In this document: positions 4,573-64,000 of the stretch, in pieces
How the letters are laid out: every line of letters begins with the position of its first letter
How positions within the stretch are numbered: the stretch's first letter is position 1
From: a virus
DNA: 64,000 bases
Virus record (IMG/VR): IMGVR_UViG_3300044712_001292
Coordinates: 39,000-102,999 of that record
Direction: 5' to 3' (one strand)
Translations under genes and position numbers: made by a program
Notes under the pieces: generated by a model
The model's input: only the letters and a program-made list of their open reading frames with translations
The model's database searches: none
Told to the model about the DNA's origin: nothing

Positions 4573-6378
4573 ATGCGGATAGACACGCGTAAGTCGTTGA
4601 TGTTGTCAGACTCACAGCAGCTGACGCCGACGACGAACCTATTGAACCCGGCATGGCGTAAGTCATTTCAGGACGCGTTGCTCAAGCTCAGTGGAACAGT
4701 CGATATCGTCGCACCTCCCGCAGTCGACCCTGCAGTATCCGGTGAGGCAGCGGTCGACGCTGCCCGTCTGAACTATTCAAAACTGCCATCGAGCCCGACG
4801 GTACAGAACGCAGGTGAGGGCCGTGTCTATGCAGATAGGCTTGAGCGGTCCGCCCAGCGGATATCGCCACGCGTTTCTGCCGTTGACCGTCCGGGCGAAG
4901 TACCCTACGGGCCAGGACAACGTAGGGGTGTCGATACGTTCGCAGCGTTCGATACCGCAGGAAACACCGTAGCAGCTACGCTAGGAAATAGGCACCCGTT
5001 GATCGCAGGGGCGGCGAACATAGCGCTGCCATTTCTGACCCCGCTATGGTCGAAGTATGTACAGAACCCCGTCGCCGATCTGACGCCGTCAACTCTCACA
5101 GCGTCTCCGGAGCTCCAGGTTGGCGGCGTCCTCGCTCGCGAGGAGGCACGCCGACTGCAGACCCCAGTTGGCCAGTTCTCGAGTTCTCCGGAGCTGTCGG
5201 ACGCATACCGCGTTGGTAATCCGTATGCCGGCATGTTCGCGGGTGACACCATGTCACAGGCGGAACGGAACGCACGTCTTCTCCCAGGTGAAGGCATGTC
5301 GGCGTGGCTCGGACGTGCCAGCCCGCTGTACCCCGTTCTAGGTGCAGCTGTACCGGCCATTGCCGCTACAGGGCAGGATCTCTGGGAAGGTAAAGGCCTT
5401 CGCATTGCAGAAGACCCGGTTTTCTACACCTCATCCGCTCTGACACCGGCAGCAGCCTGGGCGGCGGCTCGCAGCATGTTGCCTCTCAGCGGGGCAGTCA
5501 GCAAGATTCCTTACGTCGGTACCACACTAGCTCGTATACCTGCTGTCGGTACCGCTATGGCTGCCGCAGGTGCTATGCAGTCGGTTGGTGAGATAGCGCG
5601 TGGTGCCCTCTCACCGGAACGCGTCGATGAGGCTCGGAGAGCATCTGGTACGGATACCGGCTGGGGCACAGCGACCGGCAGGGCTGTTGTAGGCGACCCA
5701 TTCGGGGCCGCTACCGCGCTCGATCCTGAGGCTGTTGAGGCTAACAAGCGTGAGTTCCTGCGTGGTCGGCGCGATATCGTGGAAGATGCGTCCGGCACGC
5801 GTATTCCCTTTGACCGGGACATGGTCATACAGCGTCTCTCACGTTCTGCCGAATCCGCCCCGAGTGTCCCAAACTCCATCCTCTCTGAGCTTGTGGCAAA
5901 GGGTCTGTGGACTGATGGCGGTCTGAAGCACATGGCCAAAGAGCGGTACACGCGCGAGACACCAGCCGAGCGCGGAGCGTATCGTATGGCGCAGCGGTTT
6001 GCCGATCAGAAGGGCTTCACCCCAGAGGACCCGCGTCGGATAGAGTTGTTCCATCAGCAACTGAAGAAGATGGGCATCACCCCGTCGGCGGCAGGCGATA
6101 AGCGGCAATGGATCGGTGCGGCTAAGACGATCGCCTCTGCACTAGAGAACCGGTTCCCCGGCGTCCGCATTTCAAAGACAGGTATTGTCGAGCTTGCTAA
6201 CCTCGTTCGTACCAACGGGGTAGAGGCTACGGCTGCTTCGTTTATGCCAACTGGAAGGCCCGACGATGCGCTTGAGTCGCTGCGCCTTCAGGCTATCCTC
6301 AATTCCGCATGGGCCGACCCGTCAACGAAGGCCCAAGCAGGCGCCATCTACCAACAGCATTTCCAGAATCCTCGCTAG
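4573..6378 (+). CDS. Hypothetical protein (possible internal virion/ejection protein)
   Basis: 601 aa, Ala/Gly-rich with hydrophobic stretches. Confidence 0.7.
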   Translation: MRIDTRKSLMLSDSQQLTPTTNLLNPAWRKSFQDALLKLSGTVDIVAPPAVDPAVSGEAAVDAARLNYSKLPSSPTVQNAGEGRVYADRLERSAQRISPRVSAVDRPGEVPYGPGQRRGVDTFAAFDTAGNTVAATLGNRHPLIAGAANIALPFLTPLWSKYVQNPVADLTPSTLTASPELQVGGVLAREEARRLQTPVGQFSSSPELSDAYRVGNPYAGMFAGDTMSQAERNARLLPGEGMSAWLGRASPLYPVLGAAVPAIAATGQDLWEGKGLRIAEDPVFYTSSALTPAAAWAAARSMLPLSGAVSKIPYVGTTLARIPAVGTAMAAAGAMQSVGEIARGALSPERVDEARRASGTDTGWGTATGRAVVGDPFGAATALDPEAVEANKREFLRGRRDIVEDASGTRIPFDRDMVIQRLSRSAESAPSVPNSILSELVAKGLWTDGGLKHMAKERYTRETPAERGAYRMAQRFADQKGFTPEDPRRIELFHQQLKKMGITPSAAGDKRQWIGAAKTIASALENRFPGVRISKTGIVELANLVRTNGVEATAASFMPTGRPDDALESLRLQAILNSAWADPSTKAQAGAIYQQHFQNPR

Positions 6379-9320: not shown

Positions 9321-12300
9321 ATGGACGCACCAGTTACGTACCGCCGCTTCGATGATATCGACGGGCAGCGCCAGGACATCTTCGACCTCGCGAAGCAGTC
9401 CATCGGGTCTATGAAGCCGTTCTCGACGCCGTCACACAGCGTCGAGATAGCTGACGTCGACTACGATGACGACTACAATCCGTCGATCGCTGAGGAGAAG
9501 GACGCCATCCTCAAGAGGAAGTCGTTGCAGCGTGCGCTGAAGGGTACGGTACGGCTGAAAGACGCTCAGGGTAATGTCGTCGAAGAGCAGCGGATGACGC
9601 TGGCCCACGTCCCCTATCTCAACTCACGCGGGCTCTTCATCCGAAACGGCGTGCCCTACGCGGTCCGTAACCAGCTGCGGCTGCGTCCGGGAGTTTATAC
9701 ACGCAAGCAGCGGAGCGGCGGCTACGAGAGCCAGTTCAACGTCCGCCCGGGGACCGGGCGCGGATTCCGTGTAGAGATGGACCCTGAAAGCGGTCTCTTC
9801 AAGATGCGCGTCGACCAGTCGACGACCAAGCTCTATCCTGTCCTCAGGGCGATGGGAGTGTCTGACGACGACATGCGTCAGGCGTGGGGCGACGATCTGT
9901 TTGAGAAGAACGCCGCAACCAGCAAGGGTCGAGACGAGCTAGACCTCTCCAAGCTGGTCCGCAAGCTCAGCGGCAAAGACGAGGATGTCGATCCCGAGAC
10001 AGCAGCGGAAGCCCTTCGTAACATCCTGCAGAAGAGTGAAGTGGATGAGGATACGACGGAGCTGACGCTCGGTGAGCGCGTTGCCCGTATCGAACCGAGG
10101 CACATCCTGGCTGCAACGCGGAAGCAGCTCGCTGTCGCACGCGGAGAGGCGGAGTCCGACAACCGTGACTCACAGGCGTATCAGTCGTTTCATGCCGCCC
10201 AGGACCTGCTGGCAGAACGTATGCGGCGTGACGCTACGGGGGCCGCTCGCAACTCGTTCTGGAAGGCTGCGCGGTTACAGTCGCTGAAGAACCTGCAGCC
10301 GGGGTTCATGAACCCGAACATCGGGTCGTTGTTCGAGGGTAGCGGGCTTGCCCTGACCGTTGAAGACATCAATCCGATCGACGTGTACGACACGCGCCAG
10401 GCAGTTACCCGTCTCGGGGAAGGCGGCATGTCGCGTGATGCGGTCAGTCGTGACGCTCGCAACGTCCAGAGCAGCTACATCGGCGTTATCGACGCTTCGC
10501 GCGCACCCGAGTCGGACGCGATCGGCGTAGACCTGCGCGTAACTGACGCCGCGATGCGCGGAAGTGACGGCCAGCTGTATACAACCGTGCGTAACCTGAA
10601 GACCGGCCAGCTCGAGACGCTGTCCGCGCGAACACTCTCGACAAAGTCCGTTACGTTTCCGGGAGAGATGGGGAACGAGGGAAAGCGCGTGCCTGCCATA
10701 CGGGGTGATCGCATCACCTACGTTCCTAAGAGCGAAGTCGACTACGAGGTCGTGAGCCCGGATGACATGGCGTCGCGCGCATCACGCCTGATTCCTTTCC
10801 CGGAAGGCATCAAGGGACAGCGTCTGCTCATGGGCGCTCGTATGACATCTCAGGCGGTTCCGCTTCAAGAGCCTGAGGCCCCATTCGTTCAGACGGGTAA
10901 CGCGGACGGGTCGTCTCTGCACGCTGCAATGGGCAGGGACGTCGGTGCCCGCATGTCTCCAGCCGACGGCATCGTGACCAAGGTAACACCAGACGTCATT
11001 GAGATGACGGGTAACGACGGACAGAAGCATCAGATTCAGCTCTATAACAACTACCCCACGGCCCGGAAGACCGTGCTGCACAACGACCCCGTCGTGCAGC
11101 CTGGCACGGTTGTGAAGGCCGGTCAGATGCTGGCCAGGTCCAATTTTACCGACGATAAGGGAACCTTCGCTATCGGGCGTAACCTGCGCGTTGGATACAT
11201 GGTTGCCGAGGGCGATAGCATCGAAGACGCCTTCGTCATCTCCGAAAGCGCAGCCAAGAAGCTGGGCGCTCAGGCGATGTACAAGGCGGATCTCGACCTC
11301 GGTCAGATCGCCTCGACAGACAAGTCCTCCTATAACGCGGTGTACGCCGGCAAGTACAGCCCCCAGCAGCTGGATCAGATCGATGACGACGGCGTCATCA
11401 AAGTGGGTGCTACCGTTCAAAAGGGCGACCCGCTGATACTCGCCATCGGCAACAAGCCGCAGTCCCTGGTCGGGGCAGTGACGAAGTCAGCCAAGTCTCA
11501 GGTGTCTGACCAGTCGCAGGTGTGGGAACACGCCGCTCCGGGAATCGTTACCGATATCAGCCGGACGAAGGACGGCATACGTGTGCTGGTCCGTTCGTAC
11601 GATGTCACGCAGGTTGGCGACAAGCTCTCCGGTCGTTACGGCAATAAGGGCGTGGTCAGCGCTCAGATTCGGCCAGACGACCAGATGCCGATCGCTGCCG
11701 ACGGGAAGCCGCTGGAAGCCATCATCAACGCCAATGGCATCATCAGTCGCGTCAATCCGGCAGCCCTAGCAGAGTCGCTGTTGGGTAAGATCGTGGAACG
11801 CACCGGGCGTGATCCGTACATTGTCAAACCGTTCAGCACCCCGGAAGGCATCGCTGATTTTGCGCTGAACGAGGCGGCCAAGCACGGGATCAGCGAGACG
11901 GAGACCGTCGTAGACCCGCGCGACGGCCGTAAGATCCCCAATGTCTTCGTCGGCAACTCCTACATCATGCGCCTTCATCATAAGGCCGAAGGCAAGATCA
12001 GCGGTAGAGATCAGGGCACCTACACGGTCGACGAATACCCAGCCCGTGGCGGCGCTGAAGGCTGCTTCATCGCCGAGCAGCCTGTTCTTACGCGGTTTGG
12101 CAGCATGCCCATCGGAGATATCGTTCATCTGAAGGCGGAGGTCCATGTATTGACGTGGTCTGACGTCGCCGGTAGCTGGGTCTATCGCCCCGTGACGGAC
12201 TGGTTCGAGTACACAGCACGGGCGTCCGACCTGCGAGTTGTCGAGCTAGAGCCTTCGACCGGCATTACGCACAACGTATTCACGGCGACACTAAATCACA

Positions 12301-27547: not shown

Positions 27548-28747
27548 ATGTCGAAGAACAAGCTCACCGCTGATCTCGATCGCCTCATCAAGCGGGCCGC
27601 CGAAGTAAAGGCGACCGGCATCAAGAAGGCCGAGGACGTCAGTGCCAAGCTGGACAAGGCCGAGGACGGCACCGTTGCCGCCACCACCGGCGCCCACGCT
27701 GCCGACAACAAGGCTGAGGCCGCCAAGATCACCGCCGGTGCTGTTGACGGTGGTGCCAAGGACAACCAGGCCAACGGCTCTGTCGCCAACAACACGGATG
27801 GCAGCAAGGCCACCGCTACCGACGGCCAGAAGGGCCCGGCTGCTGGCGAGTTCCCCATCAAGGGCGAGGCCGACAACGGCCCCACCAAGGGCGAGGGCAA
27901 GTTCGCTGGCGTCCGCAAGCTGGCGAATGACCTGCGTGCTGCCGCTGACGGTCTGCTGACCGGCTTCGACAAGTTCCTGGTCAAGTCGGCTCGCGCCTCC
28001 GAGGATAAGCAGGTCAAGACTGCTGCCGAGGGCATGGGCGACGACGAGCTGGCTGATCAGGCCTCGGATGCTCTGATGGAGCAGATCGCGGCTGGTCAGG
28101 TCAGCGACGCAGATGCCGAGCAGATCCTGCAGGAGGCGGTCCAGGCCGGCGCTATCACCCCGGACGAGCTGGAGCAGGCTGCTCAGCTCGCTCACGAGGC
28201 CAGCGGCGGTGCTGAGGCCGAGGCCGCTCCTTCTGACGAGGAGCAGATGAAGGTCGCGGCTGCTCAGATCACCCCGGAGCACCCGAAGTACCTCGAGAAG
28301 CTCGCCTCGATCTACGACGAGGATATGCGCGCTGGCTACGCCTTCTTCACCAAGCTCGCGTCGGAACTCGTGGCTGAGGCCGAGAAGGCCCCGGCTGAGG
28401 AGAAGGAAGAGAAGGCTGAGGAGGCCGCTGAGACCCCGGCCGAAGAGAAGGCTGAGGAAAAGGCTGAGGGGAAGGAAAAGGCTGCTCCGCTCGCTGGCGC
28501 TGAGACCCCGGCTGAGGAGAAGAAGGAGCAGGAGATCGTCGACGCTATGTCTGGCGTCGATCTCAAGCCCGCCGACGACGCTGAGAAGCAGGCCCTCGAG
28601 GCCGTCAAGCAGGAGCTCGGCCTGAACGACGGTCAGCTGGCCGAGATCGCTGCCGCCCCGCTGCCTGCCCCTCAGGACAAGGTGGCCGCCGCAAAGGCCA
28701 AGTACCGTTCTGCTATCATGGCCAAGGTTGCGGCCCTGAAGAAGTAA
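27548..28747 (+). CDS. Probable capsid scaffolding protein
   Basis: 399 aa, acidic and Ala-rich, strong codon bias, about ten K-x-A motifs; follows the protease. Confidence 0.75.
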   Translation: MSKNKLTADLDRLIKRAAEVKATGIKKAEDVSAKLDKAEDGTVAATTGAHAADNKAEAAKITAGAVDGGAKDNQANGSVANNTDGSKATATDGQKGPAAGEFPIKGEADNGPTKGEGKFAGVRKLANDLRAAADGLLTGFDKFLVKSARASEDKQVKTAAEGMGDDELADQASDALMEQIAAGQVSDADAEQILQEAVQAGAITPDELEQAAQLAHEASGGAEAEAAPSDEEQMKVAAAQITPEHPKYLEKLASIYDEDMRAGYAFFTKLASELVAEAEKAPAEEKEEKAEEAAETPAEEKAEEKAEGKEKAAPLAGAETPAEEKKEQEIVDAMSGVDLKPADDAEKQALEAVKQELGLNDGQLAEIAAAPLPAPQDKVAAAKAKYRSAIMAKVAALKK

Positions 28748-60414: not shown

Positions 60415-60443
60415 TTACTAACCCCCACACGGGGTATAGTCAA
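60415..60443 (-). promoter_or_regulatory. Putative promoter TTGACT-17-TAGTAA, 5 nt before ATG 60409
   Basis: Same family on the minus strand. Confidence 0.55.
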
Positions 60444-60581
60444 GCAGTGTAATACGGGGGCGTTTTTGCACATGGCGGGGTACGGCGGAGAAACCGTACC
60501 CTCTTAGGGGGCTGTAGCCCATCCCCACCTCCCCCTGGGGTCTGGCAGCCGCGCGTAGGCCCACACCAGCCTACGGCAACA

Positions 60582-60629
60582 GTATACCCCTAGGAGGGGG
60601 TATACAATATAACCCCTCCTAGGGGGTAC
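60582..60629. repeat. Long imperfect palindrome with a nested alternative hairpin
   Basis: CCCCTAGGAGGGG (60587-60599) / CCCCTCCTAGGGG (60613-60625); GTATACCCC / GGGGTATAC. Confidence 0.8.
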
Positions 60630-60679
60630 CGTCGGGAAACAGCGAAATTGCTGCATATATAGATGAGGGTTGTACTAGG

Positions 60680-61440
60680 TATGACCTCTCACCGGGAAGA
60701 GACCCGGGCTGGCCTACCCCAGTAGGTTCCACAATCATGTGGCTAGGCTGCCTGCCTAGAGTTGTCCACAAGAGCGATGTGGAGTCGCCACCTTCCCAGG
60801 TATCGCAGGGTGCAACCCCCTGCTGGACCAGTATCTCGAAAGGGGTACTCACCGAGCCATCCGTCATGGTGGTCCCCCTGGCAGGGGCATACGTCGGTAG
60901 ATGTGAGGCGGTGCGATCCCGCTATACGAGGGGACGGGTGTGTCCCTCGCGTACATGGTACACCAGAACACGTTGTAGACGGGTTGAACGGCGTTGGCGT
61001 CCTGAGTGGCGACTTCGCTCTGAGACCATCTACTTCGAGGCTCCGGACGGAAGACTCCGTCTGACCTCTGTCCGATGTCGTAAGGTGTCGGCCAGGTTCT
61101 TCCAATCCGCAGCGGGTCATGCCTCTGCGGGGCGGACTCCCTTTAGGGACAGCAGACCTCGGCGAAAGATACGAGGCGGGCGCCATTGAGAGATATGGCT
61201 CCTGGCGGCTAAAGCCGTGCTAACTAAAGATGTAGCCTGCGTAGCGAGTCTACGGCACGCAGGTATTTCACGACAGAGACGGGCCACGCAAGATGCCTCC
61301 GCATGCGTGGGATGTGGTCGCGGATGCCGGTTCTGTGAAGACGCCGGAAACGTGCGCCGAGAGCACGTACTTCACTTGGCAGCGCACCGACCGCTCCGGA
61401 GGTGCTGTGACGTGGGTAGCCTAGAAACTACCCTGAGCGG
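60680..61440 (+). ncRNA. Candidate large structured non-coding RNA or leader (strand inferred)
   Basis: About 760 nt with no credible CDS and many short hairpins. Confidence 0.35.
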
Positions 61441-61463
61441 AATTCACTAAAAAGGAGTCCGAC

Positions 61464-61733
61464 GTGAAACACGTCACCAGAGCTATGGCCGTCGCCAGGG
61501 CGGCCCGGTGGGGCGTAGACCCCACCAACCTGACCGCCGCTCAGATTCTGGTGGCGGTCGACACTGCGAAGAACCGCTGGACGGTACTTCGCAGCGTGGC
61601 CCCCATGTCCCCGGAAAGCGGCGGCGACAGTCGCCCCGGGGATAGGACATTTAACTGGCGTGGTAGATCGTACCGCGTCAGTTACTTCCACAGCGGCGAT
61701 GTCGCGGGCATCACCGCTGTGGATGGGGATTGA
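61464..61733 (+). CDS. Hypothetical protein
   Basis: Strong SD AAGGAG, GTG start, 89 aa. Confidence 0.7.
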   Translation: MKHVTRAMAVARAARWGVDPTNLTAAQILVAVDTAKNRWTVLRSVAPMSPESGGDSRPGDRTFNWRGRSYRVSYFHSGDVAGITAVDGD

Positions 61734-61738
61734 CGACA

Positions 61739-61768
61739 CCCGGAGCCTGCCCGGGTTACCAACAGGCG
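61739..61768 (+). repeat. 30-nt pseudoknot-forming element, copy 1
   Basis: CCCGGAGCCTGCCCGGGTTACCAACAGGCG, 5 nt after a stop codon. Confidence 0.8.
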
Positions 61769-61931
61769 GTCCGTCGGGGGACCTTAAACCGTGTTAGGCC
61801 CGACGCGTCCGCCATCTGGCGGGGTCACATGACTGACTGTGGGGTGTACCCGCGGGTCGGTGAGGCGCCGGTACCGTAACACCGGGTTTCGCAGGCTCTC
61901 GGAACCTGCATGTTCTCGAAAGGAACATACC

Positions 61932-62957
61932 ATGCTGCAGATCGTCGGAATCAATACGGCCCGCGCTTGCGCCAAGGAGGGCAGCCTCCTAATCGGTACC
62001 CACTCGGGGCCGTTCCACGCCGACGAGGCCGGGGCCATCGGCCTCGTCGAAATGTACCGGGAGGCGTTCGCCCTCGGCGCCGTCGCCGCGGTGCGTACCC
62101 GCAATCCCGCGGAGCTCGCCTCCATCAAGGAGGCCGGTGGCGTCCTGGTGGACGTCGGCGGCGAGTATGTCCGCCCCAAGGGACCGGATCTCCGCGGTCT
62201 CCTGGCGGACCACCACCAGAAGGGTGGGGCGTGCCCGCCGCGCCCCAATGGGGTCCCCTACTCCAGCTTCGGGCTGGTGTGGCGGGAGATCGGCCCCGCC
62301 ATCTGCCGCCACACCATGGCCCAGCTTGGGGTCCCCGAGCTCGACGAGGCGGTCGTCGTCGATACGGTGGACGAGGGGCTCGTAAGCGCCATCGACGCCA
62401 CGGACAATGGAGCGGTCGATACGGTTGCGACCGTGAAGTCGACGGGGCGCCCCATGGCCCACTGGGGTGTCAGCCTGGTGGTGCACCAGATGAACCCGCC
62501 GGCGATCCCGGGCCTGGAGCAGAACTTTGACGAGGCCTTCATGAAGGCCGTCAAGTTCATGCAGACCTGCGTGGCAGCGGCGGTGGTCTCGGCCATCGCT
62601 GAGGAGGCCGCGAAGGCCACTGTCCGCAAGGCCATCTCCATCTCCACGGGACCGGTCCTCCAGCTCGACACCTATGTCGACTGGCAGGACACCGTGGCGC
62701 GTGAAACGACCGACGTGCTGTACGTGATCTTCCGGAACCCCGAGGGGACCTGGATGGTCCAGCAGGTGCCCAAGGCCCTGGGATCATTCGAGGGCCGCAA
62801 GCCCTTGCCGGCCGCGTGGGCCGGGCTGCGCGACACGGCGCTGCAGGCCGTCACCGGCGTGCAGGACGCGGTGTTCTGCCACAACGGCAGGTTCATCGCC
62901 GGGGCCAAGAGCCGTGAGGGTGCCCTGCGCCTCGCCAGGCTCGCCGTGGAGGCGTAA
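61932..62957 (+). CDS. myg1: MYG1-family (UPF0160, DHH-like) exonuclease
   Basis: THSGPFHADE, RTR, DVGGEY, DHHQ, SSFGLVW, IDATDNG, PLPAAWAGLRD, FCHNGRFI; SD before ATG 61932. Confidence 0.93.
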   Translation: MLQIVGINTARACAKEGSLLIGTHSGPFHADEAGAIGLVEMYREAFALGAVAAVRTRNPAELASIKEAGGVLVDVGGEYVRPKGPDLRGLLADHHQKGGACPPRPNGVPYSSFGLVWREIGPAICRHTMAQLGVPELDEAVVVDTVDEGLVSAIDATDNGAVDTVATVKSTGRPMAHWGVSLVVHQMNPPAIPGLEQNFDEAFMKAVKFMQTCVAAAVVSAIAEEAAKATVRKAISISTGPVLQLDTYVDWQDTVARETTDVLYVIFRNPEGTWMVQQVPKALGSFEGRKPLPAAWAGLRDTALQAVTGVQDAVFCHNGRFIAGAKSREGALRLARLAVEA

Positions 62958-62962
62958 CCCCG

Positions 62963-62992
62963 CCCGGAGCCTGTCCGGGTTACCAACAGGCG
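62963..62992 (+). repeat. 30-nt pseudoknot-forming element, copy 2
   Basis: CCCGGAGCCTGTCCGGGTTACCAACAGGCG, 5 nt after the MYG1 stop; 29/30 identical to copy 1. Confidence 0.8.
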
Positions 62993-63426
62993 ACCAGGAA
63001 AGCCAGGGTGCGACACACCCTGGTTGCCCACCACGGGAAGGTCCAGCTTCGCGAGCTGGCTGCATAACCTGCAGATCATAGCGCATAGGGCGTCAGCTCC
63101 CCGGTCACAGCTGACAAGGACTGTTATGAAGGCGGGAAACCTGCACCGGGGTTCTCAACCCCCGGTGCCGCCGTCAGGTCATACCTGGCGGCAGTTAGCA
63201 CCCCGTCTCTGGCGCCTTGAGCGCCAGTAATGGGGTGCGAAGAAACCAGGGTGGCAACGGCCCTGGTTTCTACACCAATACGTTGCACTTTTCACCTCCC
63301 CTACCAGATAGGTTGGGCCGGTGTAACAATCGTGAATCACGCGCCTTCGGGTTGCGTGGTCACACTGTTACACTGGCTCAGCGTATCTGGTAGGGTCGGT
63401 GTGTTGTGGGTTCGGCCGTTTTTTTT
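62963..63426 (+). ncRNA. Candidate ~460-nt structured ncRNA ending in a U8 tract
   Basis: Consecutive stems at 63001-25, 63043-59, 63092-115, 63143-68, 63170-92, 63198-238, 63241-71 and 63299-395, many with G-U pairs on the + strand. Confidence 0.55.
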
Positions 63427-63436
63427 ACCTATGAAC

Positions 63437-63524
63437 GCGGAATGCGCCTAGCAGCCGACTCATAATCGGTCCTCGTTAAACGCTGGGTCGGTCGAGAGAG
63501 GTTCGATTCCTCCATTCCGCACCA
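63437..63524 (+). tRNA. Atypical tRNA, anticodon CAT (Ile2/Met type), lacking a D arm and with a long variable region
   Basis: Acceptor GCGGAAT(G)/(C)ATTCCGC-A-CCA; anticodon arm GCCGA-CTCATAA-TCGGT; T arm GAGG-TTCGATT-CCTC. Confidence 0.75.
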
Positions 63525-63536
63525 CCAAGGACAACC

Positions 63537-64000
63537 ATGACAACCTACATCCAGCACCTGCTCATCCTGCTGACCGAGGCGCTCGCTATCCTCGGCAGCA
63601 AGAACAAGGCCTACGGCCTGTTCAGCAAGCTCATAGAGTATATCACCTCGGAGGTGACGGTGCTCGAGAACCGCCTCGACGCCCGGACGCAAGAGGTCGA
63701 AAACCTGGAGCGACGGCTGCGTGAGCAGCAGGAGACCATCCGCGACCTCGAGCGGCGGTATGCCGTGGCCATGGAAGAACATAAGCGACTGGCTACGTGT
63801 AACAGAGATTTAACCGACCCCATGGTAGAGATGCACGTGAGCTGCCATTCAAACGGCATCTCACGTATCTTCGAGGGTCAGTTCATCGACGCCATCAAGG
63901 TACTCCGGTCGATGTCGGAGCTTGGCCTGGCTGAGGCAAAGGGGTGCGTGTCCCAGCTCGCGTCGTACACCCCGAATCTCGGCGGTCCCGAGAAGGAAGC
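63537..64000 (+). CDS. Coiled-coil protein with ribosomal L7/L12 C-terminal-domain motif, 3'-truncated by the window (absent from the ORF track)
   Basis: SD AAGGA; open frame MTTYIQHLL...FIDAIKVLRSMSELGLAEAKGCV. Confidence 0.75.
   Translation, partial: MTTYIQHLLILLTEALAILGSKNKAYGLFSKLIEYITSEVTVLENRLDARTQEVENLERRLREQQETIRDLERRYAVAMEEHKRLATCNRDLTDPMVEMHVSCHSNGISRIFEGQFIDAIKVLRSMSELGLAEAKGCVSQLASYTPNLGGPEKE

Follow-up and report, generated by a model that had tools for sequence, protein, structure and literature searches.

A compact pseudoknot (PK) that stands a few nucleotides behind a stop codon, and that has apparently been kept between related phages while the self-cleaving ribozyme predicted behind it changed class, is the main finding from the stretch of viral DNA analysed here, a 64,000-nt piece (the window) that closes a viral contig of 103 kb in IMG/VR (IMGVR_UViG_3300044712_001292; ~53% complete) and ends where that contig ends. 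A rhizosphere sample is the likely source. All the elements under study are found on the + strand from 61739 onwards, i.e. at the extreme terminus of the record. A previous sequence-only reading had described them as contiguous and co-oriented, which they are, and had combined them into a module for the takeover of RNA and translation, built around a MYG1 exonuclease with pseudoknots, a non-coding RNA, an odd tRNA and an L12-like protein. What it saw holds in part, and its interpretation likewise finds partial support. Our best explanation is a different one: on balance, an operon of co-oriented accessory genes begins here in a large (~200 kb) uncultured phage, and its intergenic gaps probably hold cis-acting RNA elements that would cut and cap the polycistronic transcript, with MYG1 and the coiled-coil/L12-motif protein being cargo genes of this operon, rather more plausibly than parts of a dedicated machine. 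The elements, in their order along the strand, are as follows (ORF, open reading frame).

61464..61733, + strand: ORF89, a hypothetical small protein and the upstream cistron (ORF list); its TGA stop (61731-61733) is followed by PK copy 1 after 5 nt
61739..61767, + strand: PK copy 1, a compact H-type pseudoknot (repeat, fold, relatives)
61768..61829, + strand: predicted pistol self-cleaving ribozyme (RF02679, 32.8 bits; own descriptor; class architecture)
61830..61931, + strand: MYG1 leader (sequence, fold)
61932..62957, + strand: MYG1/UPF0160 gene of the DHH family, 341 aa (Pfam PF03690, E 1.2e-59)
62963..62991, + strand: PK copy 2, an H-type pseudoknot 5 nt past the MYG1 TAA stop, with stems as in copy 1 and U instead of C as loop 2
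62992..63426, + strand: ORF-poor, densely folded RNA region (fold z-score; inverted repeat)
63437..63527, + strand: tRNA-like structure (sequence, fold, weak tRNA-Sec match)
63537..64000, + strand: 5' part of a 202-aa gene, the full-length product of which is P0121 (ORF list, profile searches)

The PK is a 30-nt repeat (61739-61768 and 62963-62992) with only two copies in the 103-kb contig, where 0 would be expected, and with the sequence CCCGGAGCCUGYCCGGGUUACCAACAGGC; both copies start 5 nt after a stop codon. In copy 1, stem S1 pairs 61739-43 with 61751-55 (CCCGG/CCGGG), stem S2 pairs 61745-49 with 61763-67 (GCCUG/CAGGC) and the third loop, L3, reads UUACCAA; a 97%-identical phage on a 48-kb metagenome contig (the freshwater strain) carries a single change in this copy, at the unpaired position 61750. 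Two further members occur on the metagenome contigs L009 and L010, which were both found through their MYG1 genes in a single metagenome scan: in L009 the PK lies 8 nt past the stop of the ORF before MYG1 and its S2 has changed from GCCUG/CAGGC to GCACG/CGUGC, and in L010 it lies 7 nt after a stop and L3 reads UUAACAA. Every stem position pairs in each of the four members, two S2 pairs having been replaced on both sides, and all four (4/4) are situated 5-8 nt 3' of the stops of ORFs of 98-374 codons. Since these two S2 pairs changed compensatorily across the four copies, there is good evidence, drawn from their alignment, that the fold itself is under selection, and the pseudoknots of the sequence-only reading are borne out in this respect.

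A spacing of 5-8 nt between stop codon and pseudoknot is also the geometry of known recoding stimulators, such as those of murine leukaemia virus (MuLV) readthrough, luteovirus -1 frameshifting and antizyme +1 frameshifting, and it could be argued that the PK prompts stop-codon readthrough or -1/+1 frameshifting in the ORF that ends before it. This is very improbable indeed: no slippery heptamer precedes any of the PK copies, all three stop codons are used in front of them, and continued translation in frame 0 or +1 would run into a stop before long (17-22 codons on at copy 1), the resulting extensions being short, not conserved and never joined to the next gene.

Could the repeat, then, act mainly as DNA, i.e. 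as a block of homology at cassette borders that allows accessory genes to be swapped, its RNA fold being incidental? Several observations agree with this. The repeat brackets a gene of deviant composition (GC 0.696 in MYG1 versus 0.56-0.65 elsewhere in the window), and in the relatives it stands behind unrelated genes. Compared with the freshwater strain, the 3' part of MYG1 (62535-62971) shows 41 differences in 437 nt (~9%) and the stretch 63016-64000 only 6 in 985 nt, and a 151-nt contig of another sequencing run matches 62939-62991 and diverges directly after PK copy 2; on these alignments, the divergence pattern looks like a mosaic exchange with its border at the PK. As the sole role of the repeat this is nevertheless unlikely, because the two compensatory pairs in S2, next to an unchanged S1 and L3, point to selection on the fold, because its position is fixed relative to stop codons and its strand is always that of the genes, and because a ribozyme directly abuts it in two genomes.

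Beyond these four members, scans with the PK pattern covered IMG/VR (6 stretches in each of two scans) and GTDB genomes (31 stretches, about the number estimated for chance), and the matches were mostly coding or chance; the PK family therefore looks small and lineage-bound. Possible further members, which we did not count, are found in L092, L126, L094/L095 and L099, with no ribozyme near any of them. The L092 site (a viral contig, minus strand, reverse-complement position 5433) lies 8 nt past the TGA of a 1684-codon ORF, and that of L126 (650-678, in a Nocardia genome) 8 nt past a TGA and with a perfect 6-bp stem 2; these two sites outside the lineage may be true distant members or may reflect chance. 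The contig has CCGGGTTACCAA a third time (G000 28671-28682, minus strand); this occurrence was discarded, as it falls inside coding sequence and comes without stem 1. We also note that when the entire gap from ORF89 to MYG1 is folded for minimum energy, PK copy 1 (61740-61759) pairs instead with 61876-61903 of the MYG1 leader, a stretch complementary to it and ~30 nt before the MYG1 start, giving a ~20-bp interrupted helix that encloses the pistol; this modelled helix, which is not conserved in L009, may represent an alternative fold.

Directly abutting PK copy 1, and ~100 nt 5' of MYG1, lies an element (61768-61829) that had gone unnoticed in the sequence-only reading and that, as judged from its sequence and architecture, is a pistol ribozyme with a predicted cut between G61824 and U61825. 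Pistol ribozymes are distinguished by a pseudoknot between the P1 loop and the P2-P3 junction and by a 2-nt junction before P2 (PMC4604425). Here, P1 comprises 5 bp (61768-72 with 61779-83), its loop (61773-78, GUCGGG) can pair with the P2-P3 junction (61799-804, CCCGAC) at 6/6 Watson-Crick positions, P3 has 6 bp (61808-13 with 61818-23), and the strict 2-nt junction between P3 and P2 is G61824-U61825, i.e. the predicted cut site. In the cmscan alignment, the core segments UAAA, UUAGG, GCGU and GGU all match the upper-case consensus. Among all 4227 Rfam families the pistol model gave the best match in the window (E 1.3e-5 when the contig was searched with RF02679 alone), and a strict descriptor of our own matched once, at 61768-61829, in 835 kb of loci plus window. 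The element shares with its class (RF02679; Weinberg 2015; Harris 2015, PMC4604425) the P1 hairpin, the 6-bp pseudoknot, the P3 hairpin, the AAA linker, the UUAxG...GCG core, the 2-nt G-U cut junction and an intergenic setting in a phage; it differs from it in residing in a genome of ~60% GC, most known members coming from Firmicutes and environmental DNA, and in having an extra conserved pseudoknot fused to its 5' side.

In the window, the ORF89 stop is thus followed, 5 nt on, by PK copy 1, the pistol and a leader of ~106 nt to MYG1, and, behind MYG1, by 5 nt, PK copy 2, folded RNA, tRNA-like structure and next ORF. The window and L010 are syntenic: an 817-aa upstream ORF has a homologue in L010 (31% identity, E 3e-118), with MYG1 following a few kb later (49%). 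In L010, ORF126 ends in its stop, followed by 7 nt, the PK, 1 nt, a type-I hammerhead and a short leader to ORF108, behind which come a tRNA-like element, a long hairpin, a second hammerhead, ~37 nt and MYG1. Both hammerheads (5092-5141 and 5862-5912; type I, with stem I open) possess the CUGANGA...GAAA core, A15.1-U16.1, H17 and three stems. The first consists of stem I UCUGC/GCAGA, CUGAUGA, a 5-bp stem II, GAAA and stem III CGC/GCG, with a predicted cut after U-A; the second is its paralogue, with a covarying stem III (UGC/GCA) and no PK in front. On the Rfam type III model they reach 25.4 and 20.3 bits only, while our own hammerhead descriptor found these two sites and no others in the 835 kb. 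Two hammerheads hence flank ORF108 plus the tRNA-like element in L010, and the window shows one pistol before the contig end. In L009 the order is a homologue of ORF126 (65% identity), 8 nt, PK, a hammerhead-resembling sequence, an L010-type leader and MYG1. The same short leader is seen 3' of each L010 hammerhead (5142-5176, 5913-5949) and at the L009 MYG1 (795-830), and comprises AACCCAAAC, a 5-6-bp hairpin, AGGAG and a start codon.

What do the pseudoknot and the ribozyme belong to? The layouts indicate that the PK goes with the end of whichever gene precedes it, since it is found behind three unrelated ORF families (ORF89, MYG1 and the homologous pair ORF116/ORF126), and that the ribozymes go with the gaps and not with MYG1. 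In a comparable gap, the predicted ribozyme has exchanged its class, pistol versus hammerhead, and the PK has been kept. Precisely because the PK persists while the class changes, the sequences argue that what selection maintains is the cut itself, placed directly after a capped gene end. The elements would accordingly be transcript punctuation acting in cis, a view that follows from PKs and ribozymes flanking non-MYG1 genes as well and from the presence of neither at 78 other MYG1 loci.

In this punctuation, the compact H-type PK 5-8 nt behind a cistron stop would close the gene end. The pistol behind copy 1 would cleave at G61824/U61825 in vivo, so that the ORF89 message would end in a 2',3'-cyclic phosphate behind PK and ribozyme body and the MYG1 message would receive a 5'-OH and the ~106-nt leader. 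PK copy 2 would close the MYG1 cistron, the next 435 nt making up a separate folded RNA, and the tRNA-like structure would offer a signal to host RNase P and 3' processing that would define where the folded RNA ends and where the next message begins. As a portable gene-end cap, the PK might either shield the cistron before it against 3' exonucleases or insulate the folding of the ribozyme from terminating ribosomes.

A number of points weigh against this explanation. The pistol scores 32.8 bits with RF02679, i.e. 1.7 bits short of the Rfam gathering threshold of 34.5, with a covariance model that cannot score the pseudoknot and that aligned P1 one register off our reading; moreover, its P2 (61791-93 with 61826-28) is limited to 3 bp (GUG/CAC) plus a C-A mismatch, and these are two further departures from the class. 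The window itself contains only one ribozyme, as the contig ends inside the next gene. In L009, the sequence behind the PK resembles a decayed hammerhead that has lost its GAAA and CUGANGA core; the PK of L009 has been kept, so that the two elements can be separated. The covariation in the PK comes from two lineages only, the part of cap or insulator is one that we purely infer for the PK, and processing of the tRNA-like structure by RNase P is suggested by shape alone. Finally, all PK-bearing contigs also carry MYG1.

This last point leads back to the module of the sequence-only reading, in which, put in more detail, MYG1 would trim phage RNAs to the PK or CCA end, or degrade host RNA with PK-capped phage RNAs surviving, and translation would be retuned by the tRNA mimic together with the L12-motif protein. 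MYG1 lies within 1 kb in 3/3 contigs with a sure PK, and a self-cleaving ribozyme, though of different class, is predicted to precede it in two phages; in addition, eukaryotic Myg1 is a 3'-5' RNA exonuclease (PMC6582341), and the encoded 3' end of the tRNA-like structure, ACCACCA, would need trimming. Against it stands an ascertainment bias: with three contigs that are kin to each other and were retrieved by way of MYG1, co-occurrence is inseparable from shared ancestry. The PK also follows genes other than MYG1, and in L010 the PK-hammerhead unit precedes, and would serve, another gene, whereas MYG1 there has a hammerhead and no PK. Neither PK nor pistol nor hammerhead core was found at L089, a viral contig with MYG1, or at the 78 other MYG1 loci. 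The L12 motif is a partial repeat motif of non-ribosomal proteins, and we know of no activity of a phage MYG1. We therefore hold an integrated module to be doubtful; the theme of RNA maturation stands, given that the gaps hold a predicted pistol, PK, tRNA-like structure and folded RNA, and the functional unit around MYG1 is not supported. A combined version, according to which the PK is a new portable gene-end cap that forms a unit with any ribozyme that follows and gives the cistron before it a nuclease-resistant 3' end, and MYG1 trims RNAs to the caps and the CCA end, the whole constituting a phage system for defining RNA 3' ends, appears improbable to us.

As to the genes and RNAs placed between the punctuation marks, the identity of MYG1 is the firmest. 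Its product matches PF03690 over profile positions 2-317 of 318 (202.9 bits versus a cut-off of 22.1), the metal-binding motifs HxGxFHADE, DVGG and DHHQ are intact in the alignment, and ATG 61932 is the likely start; this part of the sequence-only reading has been confirmed. The closest relatives are encoded by L009 (71% identity), L010 (49%) and L089 (45%). A phage MYG1 gene is rare: 50,697 GenBank phage records yielded 1 distant match, and no PHROG family was assigned. In its full-length Pfam match and intact motifs the protein resembles the MYG1/UPF0160 DHH-family 3'-5' RNA exonuclease (PMC6582341), from which it differs in being phage-encoded and without PHROG family. In the leader, a hairpin (61910-61928) overlaps the Shine-Dalgarno-like AAGGAA. 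Immediately 5' of the ATG, 18 nt (cgaaaggaacatacc plus context) are shared without change by the window (61914-61934) and L089 (5935-5955), although the two proteins are only 45% identical, and in both a hairpin covers the AAGGAA. Outside the MYG1 coding part, blastn detected no similarity in any fetched locus, and tRNA genes occur near some cellular MYG1 genes, not consistently.

The non-coding RNA proposed behind MYG1 has held up as far as folding is concerned: the 579-nt gap (62958-63536) reaches -296 kcal/mol compared with -221 +/- 8 for shuffles (z -9.18). The 435-nt folded region (62992-63426) ends in a long interrupted rod (63293-63401) and a run of eight U (63419-63426), and blastn found no similar DNA in any fetched locus; Rfam has no family for it, nor for the PK or the MYG1 leader. 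When the 200 nt behind MYG1 were folded in 76 loci, many strongly folded tails emerged, and a single RNA family common to them was ruled out, the tails being unrelated terminators and palindromes. At an 80% threshold, ARAGORN picks out two cloverleaf-like pieces inside the folded RNA (63016-63094 and 63119-63197), one of which holds a hairpin of 9 bp whose 7-nt loop, UUCUCAA, is of anticodon style (about 63136-63168); these pieces may be further mimics of tRNA parts.

The odd tRNA of the sequence-only reading retains its tRNA-like shape and loses its standing as a tRNA. The structure at 63437-63527 combines an acceptor stem of 8 bp with a T stem of 4 bp (loop UUCGAUU), an anticodon-type loop CUCAUAA (CAU at 63461-63) and a long variable region; it lacks a D arm, with 10 nt only between acceptor and anticodon stems, and its encoded 3' end, ACCACCA, lies 9 nt before the next ATG. 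ARAGORN called no tRNA here even with lowered thresholds, neither RF00005 nor RF01852 rose above threshold, and the best Rfam tRNA score was 25.6 bits with the tRNA-Sec model (cut-off 47). Might it still be a working non-canonical tRNA with anticodon CAU that decodes AUG or AUA like some phage 8/4 tRNAs? The 8-bp acceptor and 4-bp T stems, the consensus T loop, the 7-nt anticodon loop with U33 and A37, the encoded A73-CCA and the weak tRNA-Sec match speak for it, as does the fact that 8/4 tRNAs occur in bacteria and phages (PMC5389517). Allo-tRNAs, however, combine an 8/4 or 9/3 branch and a long V arm with a long D stem closed by a tetraloop and with G73/U73 (PMC5389517); our structure shares with them the 8/4 acceptor branch and the long variable region, has 10 nt and no stem in the place of the D arm, carries A as discriminator and remains below every tRNA threshold. 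Furthermore, the tRNA-like elements of the relatives could not decode, as explained below, and a working tRNA is in our estimation quite unlikely.

The element common to L009 (239-314) and L010 (5541-5612) is made up of a 7-bp acceptor stem, a T arm and an ACCA end, and its 'anticodon' hairpin, the stem of which covaries at three pairs, has a 3-nt loop, with which, going by its sequence, it cannot decode. A covariance model of this element matched real tRNAs weakly and did not match the window element; for this reason we regard the two as different tRNA mimics, and it appears that different mimics fill gaps in the same kind of operon. A scan of IMG/VR for the 3' half of the L009/L010 element found nothing. 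The element is preceded by a conserved GGAGG hairpin, a start codon overlaps its first acceptor base, and in L009 an 11-codon mini-ORF runs into it. In L089, two tRNA genes ~4 kb behind MYG1 (10944-11074 and 11231-11357) contain anticodon-loop insertions of 62-65 nt, which are possibly introns. Known tRNA-like processing signals include mascRNA at the MALAT1 3' end and the tRNA punctuation of mitochondrial transcripts. As in these, a tRNA-shaped element sits here where a long structured RNA gives way to the next message; the window element differs from them, and from allo-tRNAs, in having no D arm and in that its processing is only predicted.

The resemblance to L12 proves similarly partial. 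P0121 consists of a coiled-coil N-terminal half and one helix-hairpin sub-motif, ~35 aa, of the L7/L12 C-terminal domain (CTD) (residues ~108-146, nt 63858-63974), rather than the full domain: against PF00542 it scores 18.4 bits (cut-off 25.9) over profile positions 13-37 of 67 only, i.e. 25 residues, and against L7/L12 of the PDB the E value is 1. In an exhaustive HMMER search, every protein recovered carries this partial motif in 2-5 tandem copies (E 3e-7 and weaker), and P0121 is hence best described as a coiled-coil protein that bears the helix-hairpin sub-motif once, and not as having an L12 CTD. The sub-motif corresponds to what we take to be the L12 helices that contact translation GTPases, and factor binding by P0121 is conceivable by analogy; the sub-motif is nonetheless common to non-ribosomal repeat proteins, which speaks against the proposed module. 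A scan of IMG/VR for the window end found nothing.

At the other end of the stretch, ORF89 has AAAGGAG 7 nt 5' of its GTG start and no Pfam or PHROG family, and 6/11 of its differences from the freshwater strain fall on third codon positions. Just 5' of it, ~1 kb (60431-61463) is without convincing ORF and includes a near-perfect palindrome, the arms of which (60587-60604 and 60608-60625) are 94% complementary and 3 nt apart; this region may be a promoter or origin where the operon starts.

How does all this compare with known systems? Among compact triplex-type H-type pseudoknots are the frameshift pseudoknots of luteoviruses and the preQ1-I riboswitch. The PK has in common with them stems of 5 bp, first and second loops of 1 nt each and a third loop of 7 nt, rich in A and C, which by analogy could lie in the S1 groove; by contrast, it has no slippery site and no open extension frame, the nucleotide before the S1 3' strand is not conserved, and no Rfam match, to preQ1 or otherwise, was obtained for it at E <= 5. 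PeSL (promoter-early stem-loop) cassettes, reportedly described in T4-type phages by Arbiol et al. 2010, resemble the PK as short repeated structured elements that border accessory genes and are linked to mosaic exchange. They are said to consist of a promoter and a simple hairpin, whereas here a pseudoknot with covarying S2 stands at the gene end, and no promoter consensus was found at it.

The closest parallel is provided by the clustered hammerheads that flank single prophage genes and for which the division of long transcripts into messages one gene in length has been proposed (Perreault et al. 2011, PMC3088659). Since ribozymes flanking phage genes have been described in this way, it goes too far to say that the layout has no described counterpart, and our proposed mechanism matches, by analogy, the one published for them. 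Cleavage by phage hammerheads has been shown in vitro (PMC3088659; PMC6765202), and ribozymes are viewed as processing polycistronic transcripts, with the role of phage ribozymes still an open question (PMC6765202). Shared with the prophage clusters (PMC3088659) are self-cleavers in the gaps between co-oriented phage genes of varying identity and the presence of two hammerheads in the relative L010; different are the conserved companion pseudoknot between stop codon and ribozyme, the change of ribozyme class between syntenic phages and the tRNA-like structure in a neighbouring gap. The arrangement amounts to a natural experiment, in that a syntenic gap keeps its PK while the predicted ribozyme changes class and, in a third relative, has apparently decayed; it supplies short defined constructs for testing the interplay of cleavage, capping and translation of the flanking genes, and it adds a rare phage MYG1 gene, the message of which would start with a ribozyme-made 5'-OH end if the pistol cuts as predicted. 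Pistol ribozymes were known already, as were hammerheads between phage genes and tRNA mimics carried by phages, and what is new, in that we did not find it described in Rfam or in the literature examined, is the conserved stop-proximal PK that accompanies the ribozyme across a change of class. The stretch is probably a variant of the known ribozyme-punctuated phage operon rather than a MYG1/translation-takeover machine.

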